NCBI RefSeq assembly: GCF_044647545.1
Contig: NZ_CP172818.1
Direction: 5' to 3' (one strand)
Length of the DNA: 64,000 nucleotides
Source of the DNA: Escherichia coli
GTDB lineage: Bacteria; Pseudomonadota; Gammaproteobacteria; Enterobacterales; Enterobacteriaceae
The notes beneath the pieces are model-generated. The model saw only the letters and a program-made list of their open reading frames with translations. It was not told the origin of the DNA and ran no database searches. The position numbers and the translations under genes are program-made. This document shows positions 10,509 to 11,278 of this stretch, piece after piece (the stretch's first letter is position 1; every line of letters begins with the position of its first letter).

Positions 10509-10784
10509 TTAAGGAGGGTATGGGGGATTACCAAAGGCAGCCCCTTTAAGCTCCGCAAGACGTTCTGACCAGTCATGCGCCAGCGCGTTGTCTTCCGCCG
10601 TGTAATACGCAGCACATTTGGCGTTATCACCGTCAGTGAACAGATCCAGAACAAACGGGCCAAACAGGGTGTTAATTCCCCAGAAAATGTTGTCCGGCGT
10701 GCGCCACTGATCACCCACTTCCTTCAGTTCATGGGCTGGTTTGTTCCGCAGTTCCACCAACTCCTGGCAATATTTATTACTCAT
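10509..10784 (-). pseudogene. yfdM: Truncated phage-type DNA N6-adenine methyltransferase (yfdM-like); ends 2 aa after the NPPY catalytic motif
   Basis: 91 aa from MSNKY..; WRTP...NAKC...NPPY motifs typical of phage Dam-like MTases; stop directly abuts the argW fragment junction; start overlaps yfdN stop (TAATG). Confidence 0.65.
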
Positions 10785-11278
10785 TAAGCCCCCACGTAAT
10801 TCCCTGACAGATACCACTCATCACCCGATACAGCGCGCTTGCTGCTTTTCCGTAAACACTGCTCACGACGCGCCAGAAAATTGTTTCGTTCTGGCTGGGA
10901 GTGGCTTTCACGGAATGCCGCCATCCACACCGTTGCAGCACGACGGTATAAGCCCCTGGACTCCAGTTCTTCCGCCTGGCGGGTCAGGCACAAAATCACC
11001 CGGGGATCGTTAGTGCCGACATAGAAATTGCGCACAGGTCTGGTTTCACGAACTGGTTGTGGTTCCGGCTCCTGCGCTCTCTCAGTCAGGCGTGGGAAAT
11101 GTCTGCGTGTATCTCCTTCACAACGGTGAGCCACACGCCCACTCTGACGTAACTTGCTTGCTGACTGCAGAACGCGCTGCCGTGAGTAACCTGCAAAAGC
11201 ATCCGCAATGTCTCCGGAAGTACACCCCGGATGGGCTTCAATGAATTTCTGAACGTCATTTAACAGACTCATGATCAC
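10784..11278 (-). CDS. yfdN: Prophage PerC-family protein (putative transcriptional activator homolog)
   Basis: 164 aa ORF; C-terminal AEELESRGLYRRAATVW matches the PerC/Pch signature; ATGA overlap with upstream yfdO. Confidence 0.7.
   Translation of the reverse strand: MIMSLLNDVQKFIEAHPGCTSGDIADAFAGYSRQRVLQSASKLRQSGRVAHRCEGDTRRHFPRLTERAQEPEPQPVRETRPVRNFYVGTNDPRVILCLTRQAEELESRGLYRRAATVWMAAFRESHSQPERNNFLARREQCLRKSSKRAVSGDEWYLSGNYVGA

Follow-up and report, generated by a model that had tools for sequence, protein, structure and literature searches.

Proteins of the PerC family differ in their effects on virulence genes. EPEC PerC activates LEE1, as seen in an assay separate from the ler::lacZ assay, in which only group 1 Pch proteins activate ler (at least 4-fold); PchD has no effect on ler and that of PchE is less than 2-fold (PMC5931665). 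Pch relieves the silencing of LEE1 by H-NS, StpA, Hha, and YdgT and displaces H-NS in vitro (PMC4764244). PerC-like genes from PICIs are inert or, in one case, lead to strong repression of LEE1, and the authors suggested ANR behaviour for the repressing protein (PMC11773190). With activation, repression, and a lack of effect all documented within the family, caution is advised: the label "PerC family" is no predictor of virulence activation.

The gene yfdN has been referred to as "K12 unique PerC homologue yfdN" by authors who deleted it as a precaution from their ler::lacZ reporter strain (PMC5931665). In RefSeq, the product of the K-12 gene and those of the homologues with a named source are annotated as "PerC family transcriptional regulator". 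Thus RefSeq annotation and the printed literature already cover yfdN, its placement in the PerC family, and its location in a prophage. UniProt-derived text still calls YfdN uncharacterized, and in the literature we found neither a published experiment on YfdN activity nor a published demonstration of its translation. Related families are labelled "transcriptional activator" in PHROGs; for YfdN, "activator" is a family label which does not imply a demonstrated property. With respect to expression, the LysR-type regulator SrsR (YgfI) binds the yfdO/yfdP spacer of K-12 more strongly than any other genomic site and protects four TCAGATTTTG-type boxes there. The yfdONMLK transcript is SrsR-activated in K-12 and is detectable in exponential and in stationary phase (PMC9181523).

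The window analysed here is a stretch of 64,000 nt from Escherichia coli (contig NZ_CP172818.1). It carries a gene which codes for a protein with 96% sequence identity to YfdN from K-12. That this gene is yfdN and that it belongs to the PerC family is, taken together, practically certain. The locus shows a conserved phage gene, yfdN, which has stayed intact within a deleted prophage remnant of the CPS-53/KpLE1 type. The best explanation overall, which also includes a two-domain product and a proposed mechanism (see below), is considered likely. The features on which this reading is based are compiled in Table 1. As a discovery, the yfdN finding is correct but ordinary and matters little; the sole fresh detail concerns the predicted architecture of the protein, a winged helix fused to a shortened PerC-like module.

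Table 1. Features of the yfdN locus and of the surrounding prophage remnant (positions refer to the window)
Feature	Position	Strand	Details and basis
yfdN coding sequence	10784..11272	minus	162 aa from ATG 11272; stop codon TAA 10786..10784; ORF list and homologues
N-terminal domain of YfdN, predicted winged helix-turn-helix (aa 1-60)	11093..11272	minus	AlphaFold2 and Foldseek
Pro/Glu-rich linker of YfdN (aa 61-88), predicted disordered	11009..11092	minus	length varies among homologues; AlphaFold2 and alignment
PerC-like three-helix domain of YfdN (aa 90-151)	10820..11005	minus	holds AEELESRGLYRRAATVW at 10925..10975; PF06069 and AlphaFold2
Truncated phage Dam-type N6-adenine methyltransferase, yfdM-like	10509..10784	minus	91 codons; ATG 10784..10782
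C-terminal fragment of lambda-O-like replication initiator, yfdO-like	11275..11885	minus	stop codon TGA 11277..11275
Repeat-array remnant inside the O fragment	11782..11880		TTTTGACGGG-type units; K-12 alignment
Divergent left-operon remnant	11965..14234	plus	yfdP 11965..12327, yfdQ 12393..13217, yfdR 13318..13881, yfdS 13872..14234; ORFs and K-12 annotation
Left boundary: 5' half of argW (tRNA-Arg(CCU)), cut in the anticodon loop	10459..10498	plus	alignment with K-12 yfdC-argW
Right boundary: attR-like copy of the argW 3' end	14342..14356	plus	CTGCAGGGGACACCA

The reading frame is intact from either of two potential start codons. The longer version, from GTG 11278, spans 10784..11278 on the minus strand and codes for 164 aa, while the shorter one begins at ATG 11272. 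All 24 distant homologues in our alignment begin at or near the position of the ATG, with MSL or MSI as the first residues in 16 cases, and the homologue from phage mEp460 is annotated from the matching position. We therefore take ATG 11272 as the likelier start codon. It is preceded by the Shine-Dalgarno-like sequence GGGGG. This choice bears on a claim of the preliminary description, that the start of yfdN overlaps the stop of the O-like fragment: the overlap exists for GTG 11278 (GTGA, with TGA 11277..11275), whereas the likelier ATG 11272 is separated from that stop by a gap of 2 nt. Either arrangement would represent a tight junction of the coupling type. At the other end, the described overlap with the truncated methyltransferase gene is as stated, with base 10784 shared between the TAA of yfdN and the ATG of the downstream gene (TAATG). 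The same one-base overlap between yfdN and yfdM is found in the RefSeq annotation of K-12.

Sequence comparison with the K-12 allele revealed 11 synonymous and 5 nonsynonymous differences (dN/dS = 0.13), so that yfdN is under purifying selection by this measure. YfdN matches PHROG 1324 (E=2e-78), homologues are retrieved at E about 1e-104, and thousands of E. coli genomes contain an intact copy of the gene. Judged by the PHROG match, the homologues, the identity to the copy in an intact prophage (see below), and the dN/dS ratio, the gene call is far beyond chance. Rfam models gave no match within 9000..15500 (E<=0.1), and the yfdN coordinates are thus not contested by an RNA element.

The preliminary description had placed the protein in the PerC family on account of a PerC/Pch signature. 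This signature, AEELESRGLYRRAATVW, is indeed present, and the assignment holds upon HMM analysis, as YfdN matches Pfam PF06069 with 38.9 bits (gathering cut-off 22.6; E=1e-9). Alignment with PerC and Pch likewise bears it out. Eleven core residues are invariant between YfdN, EPEC PerC, EHEC Pch, and a plasmid PerC-like protein, namely A102, L105, E106, G109, R112, R113, A114, A115, W118, R131, and C141 (YfdN numbering). The sequences compared were EPEC PerC from pMAR2 and a Pch of 104 aa encoded by an O26 EHEC prophage; two plasmid tblastn matches (H88 and H61) were also considered as perC and proved on inspection not to be perC. The match of YfdN to PF06069 covers only profile positions 5-58 of 90, whereas EPEC PerC and EHEC Pch match positions 1-89/90 with 143 and 149 bits. 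YfdN does not show the full-length, single-domain PerC match (about 90-105 aa), having 162 aa and an additional N-terminal domain. Because of the partial coverage of the profile and the extra domain, we consider YfdN to be a divergent, partial-domain member of the family. The residues which match PerC are also matched by the NCBIfam model ANR_neg_reg (NF033650; E=7.7e-5), at 22.4 bits and thus below the curated cut-off of 32.

An AlphaFold2 model of YfdN, built on 23 sequences, predicts two domains which are connected by a flexible segment. The N-terminal domain has the topology H-b-H-H-b-b (pLDDT 85-91). When compared to the PDB by Foldseek, it aligns with winged helices of the MarR, ArsR/SmtB, BlaI/MecI, and Fur types (58-68 aa, rmsd 1.9-2.6 Å), all of them with E>0.001. 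The N-terminal part of YfdN has no Pfam match of its own, while the N-termini of some homologues match MarR_2, Penicillinase_R, HTH_24, or PaaX. Taken together, these similarities are suggestive of a winged helix-turn-helix of a predicted DNA-binding type. In the linker, pLDDT drops below 50 at residues 63-83, and the corresponding alignment columns are gappy and unconserved.

The C-terminal domain is predicted to consist of three helices (residues 90-105, 109-122, and 126-149; pLDDT 90-95) and still reaches pLDDT 85 when modelled alone. Among predicted viral structures, it superposes on proteins of 60 aa with an rmsd of 0.5-0.6 Å and a TM score of 0.90, and one of these phage proteins is annotated as belonging to the ANR family. 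Given the good fold match and the HMM score below the cut-off, YfdN resembles ANR proteins but is not filed as one of them. The same domain alone yielded nothing significant against the PDB, only generic three-helix arrays of the TPR/MIT type (E>0.8). Such helical arrays are protein-interaction folds. A sequence search of the PDB with YfdN retrieved no match even at E<=10, and there is thus no solved relative.

The two-domain layout is not restricted to the locus analysed here. A phmmer search against 1.84 billion representatives retrieved 103 matches at E<=0.001, and among the matches listed, about two dozen proteins of 138-165 aa span both domains with 25-46% sequence identity. We aligned YfdN with 24 of these distant homologues. 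The PerC Pfam model is matched by all 25 proteins at E<=0.01, and 15 of the 25 also match the ANR model at this threshold (best E-value 4e-9). The combination of a predicted winged helix with a PerC-like module is a conserved subfamily, kept down to about 25% sequence identity. As the layout is kept in all 25 aligned proteins, the fusion is no accident of the present locus. That a predicted winged helix is consistently joined to a truncated PerC/ANR-like module could help to explain how targets are found in a poorly understood family.

The prophage remnant in which yfdN had been placed is confirmed. It comprises yfdM'-yfdN-yfdO' and the divergent yfdPQRS, located between yfdC/argW and dsdC, with mlaA and yfdC on its left and dsdC and dsdX on its right. 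The region 10516..14333 is collinear with the CPS-53/KpLE1 prophage from K-12 and shows 94.7% sequence identity. Pfam, TIGR, and PHROG profiles agree with the earlier view of the two direct neighbours, identifying a C-terminal fragment of a replication O protein and the 5' part of a gene for a phage Dam methylase. The methylase fragment covers positions 3-69 of 169 of Pfam PF05869 and positions 1-70 of 165 of TIGR01712; alignment with intact dam genes shows that the homology ends at 10518, and K-12 has the same breakpoint. The ORF upstream of yfdN corresponds with residues 90-292 to positions 108-298 of 298 of PHROG 391 ("replication initiation O-like"), and its K-12 counterpart yfdO is annotated as a pseudogene, "missing N-terminus". 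A PADLOC scan of YfdN and YfdP/Q/R/S assigned none of them to a defence-system family; there was one GajB line with E=0.0094, without a stretch passing the threshold.

At the left boundary, the 5' half of argW and dam' are separated by about 20 nt which are unmatched or degenerate, and neither ARAGORN nor Rfam reports a tRNA at the cut argW. The argW'-dam' junction was found in none of 5,426 complete E. coli genomes and gave 0 matches in GTDB representative genomes. Integrase crossover was considered as the cause of the argW break and was rejected as the simplest reading; a deletion is the more likely event, judging from the sequence, because the attR-like copy is restricted to the final 15 nt of the tRNA. 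At the right boundary, a 611-bp segment present in K-12 (the 3' part of yfdT, amounting to most of that gene, and torI in full) is absent and homology to K-12 resumes at 14342 (BLAST breakpoints 14333/14342 versus K-12 6855/7466). yfdN survives intact within this heavily deleted, CPS-53/KpLE1-like remnant at argW. Gene decay is also seen in a frameshifted yfdF and in the cut argW.

The original setting of yfdN can be deduced from complete phages. In mEp460 and in the prophage of E. coli WP4-S18-ESBL-09, cI is followed by cro-ymfL-DUF4222-replication gene-yfdN-dam-lexA-like-rusA-kilA-N-DUF968-Q-lysis, and yfdP-Q-R-S belong to the leftward operon. YfdN homologues are 95-99% identical in SfV (orf40), SfII, SfIV, mEp460, and Stx2c phages and 68% identical in Salmonella ST64B. 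Accordingly, yfdN is a conserved gene which follows the replication gene in the early-right operon of lambdoid phages of the SfV/mEp460/ST64B type. The allele analysed here matches that of an intact phage: 10518..11777 (1260 nt, including yfdN) shows 100% sequence identity to the intact WP4-S18-ESBL-09 prophage (L009) but only about 96% to K-12. A further region, 11919..14344, is 99.4% identical to the same prophage. Compared to that prophage, 3.4 kb are missing, including the N-terminal part of the replication gene, DUF4222, ymfL, cro, and cI. With the cro/cI region, the native PR has been lost.

A secondary promoter near the O'/yfdP junction must therefore account for any expression of yfdN. 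In K-12, the four SrsR boxes (matching 9, 10, 10, and 8 of 11 positions) coincide, according to our alignment, with tandem 15-bp repeats inside the O fragment. The lambda ori iterons are found at the equivalent place within O, and from this position the repeat array with its SrsR boxes probably represents former phage ori iterons. The patch 11716..11930, with 66% identity to K-12, had been considered an independent deletion; this was rejected, as the patch reflects copy-number variation of the repeat array. One good SrsR box is left in the array, GCAGATTTTGA at 11858..11868 (9 of 11 positions), with degenerate neighbours. A consensus promoter scan detected one weak site on the minus strand (11814..11786), with 2.3 sites expected by chance on both strands. 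The preliminary description had suggested that yfdN is still translated from a phage operon remnant. Transcription of this remnant operon is documented in K-12 and is uncertain in the genome analysed here. As the promoter site does not exceed chance and the SrsR boxes are reduced from four to one, yfdN may be silent in this genome. The SrsR sites published for K-12 seem to represent old repeats of a phage origin that vary between strains, in which case SrsR control of the operon, and any output of YfdN, would be strain-specific.

A silent gene would also fit a reading in which yfdN is a relic in this genome and is intact only through recent copying or conversion from the allele of a live phage. 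The loss of PR, cro, cI, and the N-terminus of O, the chance level of promoter-like sites near yfdN, and the retention of one of the four SrsR boxes of the K-12 operon all point in this direction, and the pattern of identity of the 1260-nt block (perfect to the intact prophage, only about 96% to K-12) is suggestive of a recent exchange, as opposed to long-term maintenance at this site. Against it, the same operon is transcribed in both growth phases in K-12 (PMC9181523), the coupling junctions and the GGGGG sequence at yfdN are intact, and so is the gene in thousands of E. coli genomes. We regard a silent relic as a serious possibility, albeit a somewhat doubtful one. It is very improbable, by comparison, that YfdN is an equivalent of PerC or PchABC, that is, a prophage-encoded activator of an acquired virulence locus of the LEE1/ler type. 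Its PerC core motif, the Pfam score above the cut-off, the "transcriptional activator" label in PHROGs, and the precautionary deletion of yfdN from the ler::lacZ strain (PMC5931665) could be taken to support such a role. However, activation of ler within the family is a property of PerC and group 1 Pch alone, with PchD showing none, PchE less than 2-fold, and one PICI protein even repressing LEE1; YfdN lacks the C-terminal third of PerC/Pch, as reflected by 39 bits versus 143-149; and yfdN resides in an early replication operon, while the one Pch examined occupies a moron position between lysis and terminase genes.

The three-helix domain could alternatively act in the manner of ANR proteins, binding and inactivating a transcription factor or H-NS, with a negative net effect. 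The ANR_neg_reg match of YfdN itself (E=7.7e-5) and of 15 of the 25 family members, the near-perfect superposition on the ANR-annotated phage protein, and the repression of LEE1 by a PICI PerC-like protein with suggested ANR behaviour (PMC11773190) argue for this, yet the ANR score of YfdN is below the cut-off, ANR proteins are single-domain proteins of about 60 aa without the DNA-binding-type domain predicted in YfdN, and YfdN has no known partner. On balance we consider such a negative, ANR-like action unlikely. Even less credence is given to the N-terminal domain being a Ren-like module with a role in phage exclusion-escape or replication control rather than in host regulation. The slot of yfdN is that of lambda ren, which follows P directly and with overlapping start and stop codons, YfdN matches PHROG 142 ("Ren-like exclusion protein") weakly (E=0.0099), and hhalign places YfdN residues 3-52 in register with residues 3-51 of lambda Ren (E=0.0018). 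The hhalign probability is only 14.6%, however, the PHROG 142 match has no stretch passing the threshold, and the conserved PerC-like domain would be left unexplained.

We tentatively prefer, with somewhat less than even confidence, a model in which YfdN is made early in infection and, tethered to DNA, modulates silencing or regulatory complexes; by analogy to the systems described above, this is the most economical model. The winged helix would supply the DNA targeting, and the PerC/ANR-like helical module would act via protein contacts, not via DNA contacts. Most plausibly, this module would disturb H-NS-type silencing complexes, as described for Pch, or bind another regulator, as ANR proteins have been described to do. 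In the phage, the early-right transcript would serve as the mRNA for YfdN, with translation coupled to that of the replication gene. In the remnant, expression would come only from the secondary promoter near the O'/yfdP junction, with the SrsR array known from K-12 being largely eroded. A bolder version, which we consider speculative and rather unlikely, is that YfdN-type proteins represent a separate subclass, hitherto undescribed, within the PerC/ANR superfamily, in which an anti-silencing or anti-activator module is joined to a DNA-targeting winged helix, possibly related to Ren, so as to act as a site-specific counter-silencer early in lambdoid infection. In remnants such as CPS-53, a protein of this type could have been taken over by the host regulator SrsR, which binds the apparent former ori iterons. 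If true, this could contribute to the oxidative-stress phenotype which has been ascribed to the yfdONMLK operon.

When YfdN is compared to the known systems, its C-terminal domain shares with ANR proteins (Aar-type, NF033650) the same predicted three-helix fold (TM 0.90 to the ANR-annotated phage protein), and sequence matches across the YfdN family range from sub-threshold to moderate. ANR proteins stand alone with about 60 aa, whereas YfdN scores below the ANR cut-off and has no known anti-activator activity. With EPEC PerC, from the perABC operon of the EAF plasmid, and with EHEC Pch (group 1, PchA/B/C type), YfdN shares the pattern A-x2-LE-x2-G-x-x-RRAA-x2-W ... R ... C over about 55 residues with 30-36% sequence identity. 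PerC (89 aa) and Pch (104 aa) are single-domain proteins; relative to them, YfdN has an additional predicted winged helix and linker at its N-terminus and lacks their C-terminal segment (IKQ..., MG..., FR-Y). The genomic slots differ as well, with perC in the plasmid-borne perABC operon, the Pch examined between lysis and terminase genes, and yfdN in neither of these settings. Activation of LEE1 is documented for PerC and Pch, but not for YfdN.

The closest counterparts are from phages and from K-12. SfV orf40 and its homologues in SfII, SfIV, mEp460, Stx2c phages, and ST64B are highly similar (95-99%, or 68% for ST64B), and in the two contexts examined (mEp460 and L009) the gene is preceded by the replication gene and followed by dam within the early-right operon. 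These copies belong to complete phages, in which cI/cro, Q, the lysis genes, and the structural genes are present and PR drives expression, a context which the copy analysed here lacks. The yfdN gene from CPS-53/KpLE1 in K-12 is the same gene, with the identical order yfdO'-yfdN-yfdM', the same yfdM overlap and dam truncation point, and the divergent yfdPQRS. The remnant analysed here is smaller than that in K-12, being devoid of intS, yfdGHI, tfaS, yfdK, yfdL, part of yfdT, and torI, and its argW is cut. Also in comparison to K-12, the SrsR-box repeat array is shortened, and the allele is that of a live phage, not that of K-12.

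Two segments of the cryptic prophage remnant are 100% and 99.4% identical, respectively, to the intact prophage of E. coli WP4-S18-ESBL-09, while identity to CPS-53, its counterpart from strain K-12, is only ~95-97%. The deletion junctions, however, are those of K-12 CPS-53. The fact that near-identity to an intact prophage is found despite K-12-type deletion junctions suggests that the cryptic prophage was converted by a related live phage, through gene conversion.

Coordinates of features in the window and of their K-12 counterparts (CPS-53 locus L001).
Feature	Window	K-12 L001	Strand
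yfdF (two ORFs)	7164-8223		
argW remnant and its junction with dam	10459-10517		
dam truncation	10510-10525	2995-3010	
Segment 100% identical to intact prophage	10518-11777		
Conserved PerC core (YfdN residues 96-151)	10820-10987		
Mechanical ORF	11275-12153		
Antisense part of mechanical ORF (first 84 residues)	11902-12153		minus
SrsR box/repeat array	11782-11880	4265-4398	
Segment 99.4% identical to intact prophage	11919-14344		
yfdT 5' piece and right terminus	14235-14356		

The truncated methyltransferase gene dam ends at the identical nucleotide in K-12 and in the window (GTA[C/T]GGGGGATTACC), but the sequences to its left differ: yfdL in K-12 and an argW remnant in the window. A shared break with differing left flanks implies that the dam break is ancestral to both, and would have been followed by a second deletion or a different tail-fibre allele. 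The break in argW, the gene for tRNA-Arg(CCU), falls within the anticodon loop; between the cut gene and the truncated dam lie ~20 nt that are either degenerate or without a match. Neither ARAGORN nor Rfam calls a tRNA at this position, and none of the six tRNAs in the window is a tRNA-Arg. The argW-dam junction is absent from 5,426 complete E. coli genomes and from the GTDB representatives.

At the right end, only a short 5' part of yfdT remains, torI, which codes for the excisionase-like protein TorI in K-12, is missing, and the element terminates with 15 nt that duplicate the 3' end of argW. Because torI is absent and intS is also missing, the remnant is incapable of excision.

In the literature consulted, a PerC-ANR link has been put forward as a hypothesis only (PMC11773190). 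The conserved PerC core and the ANR (AraC negative regulator) family appear to represent one three-helix fold; cross-matches between PerC and ANR are below threshold.

A frameshift near codon 120 divides yfdF into two ORFs (124 and 235 aa), and identity to K-12 YfdF is only 85-87%; this AT-rich, variable gene is thus probably a pseudogene here. The first 84 residues of the mechanical ORF, although encoded antisense to yfdP, match PHROG 3651 (unknown function; E=2.4e-38); either this family is a collection of antisense yfdP miscalls or the locus contains an overlapping gene.

The four published K-12 boxes for the LysR-type factor SrsR (YgfI) in the yfdO/yfdP spacer are tandem 15-bp repeats within the truncated O gene. 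Since only one good box is left in the window, compared to four in K-12, SrsR control of this operon is probably strain-dependent. In lambda, the equivalent position is occupied by the ori iterons.
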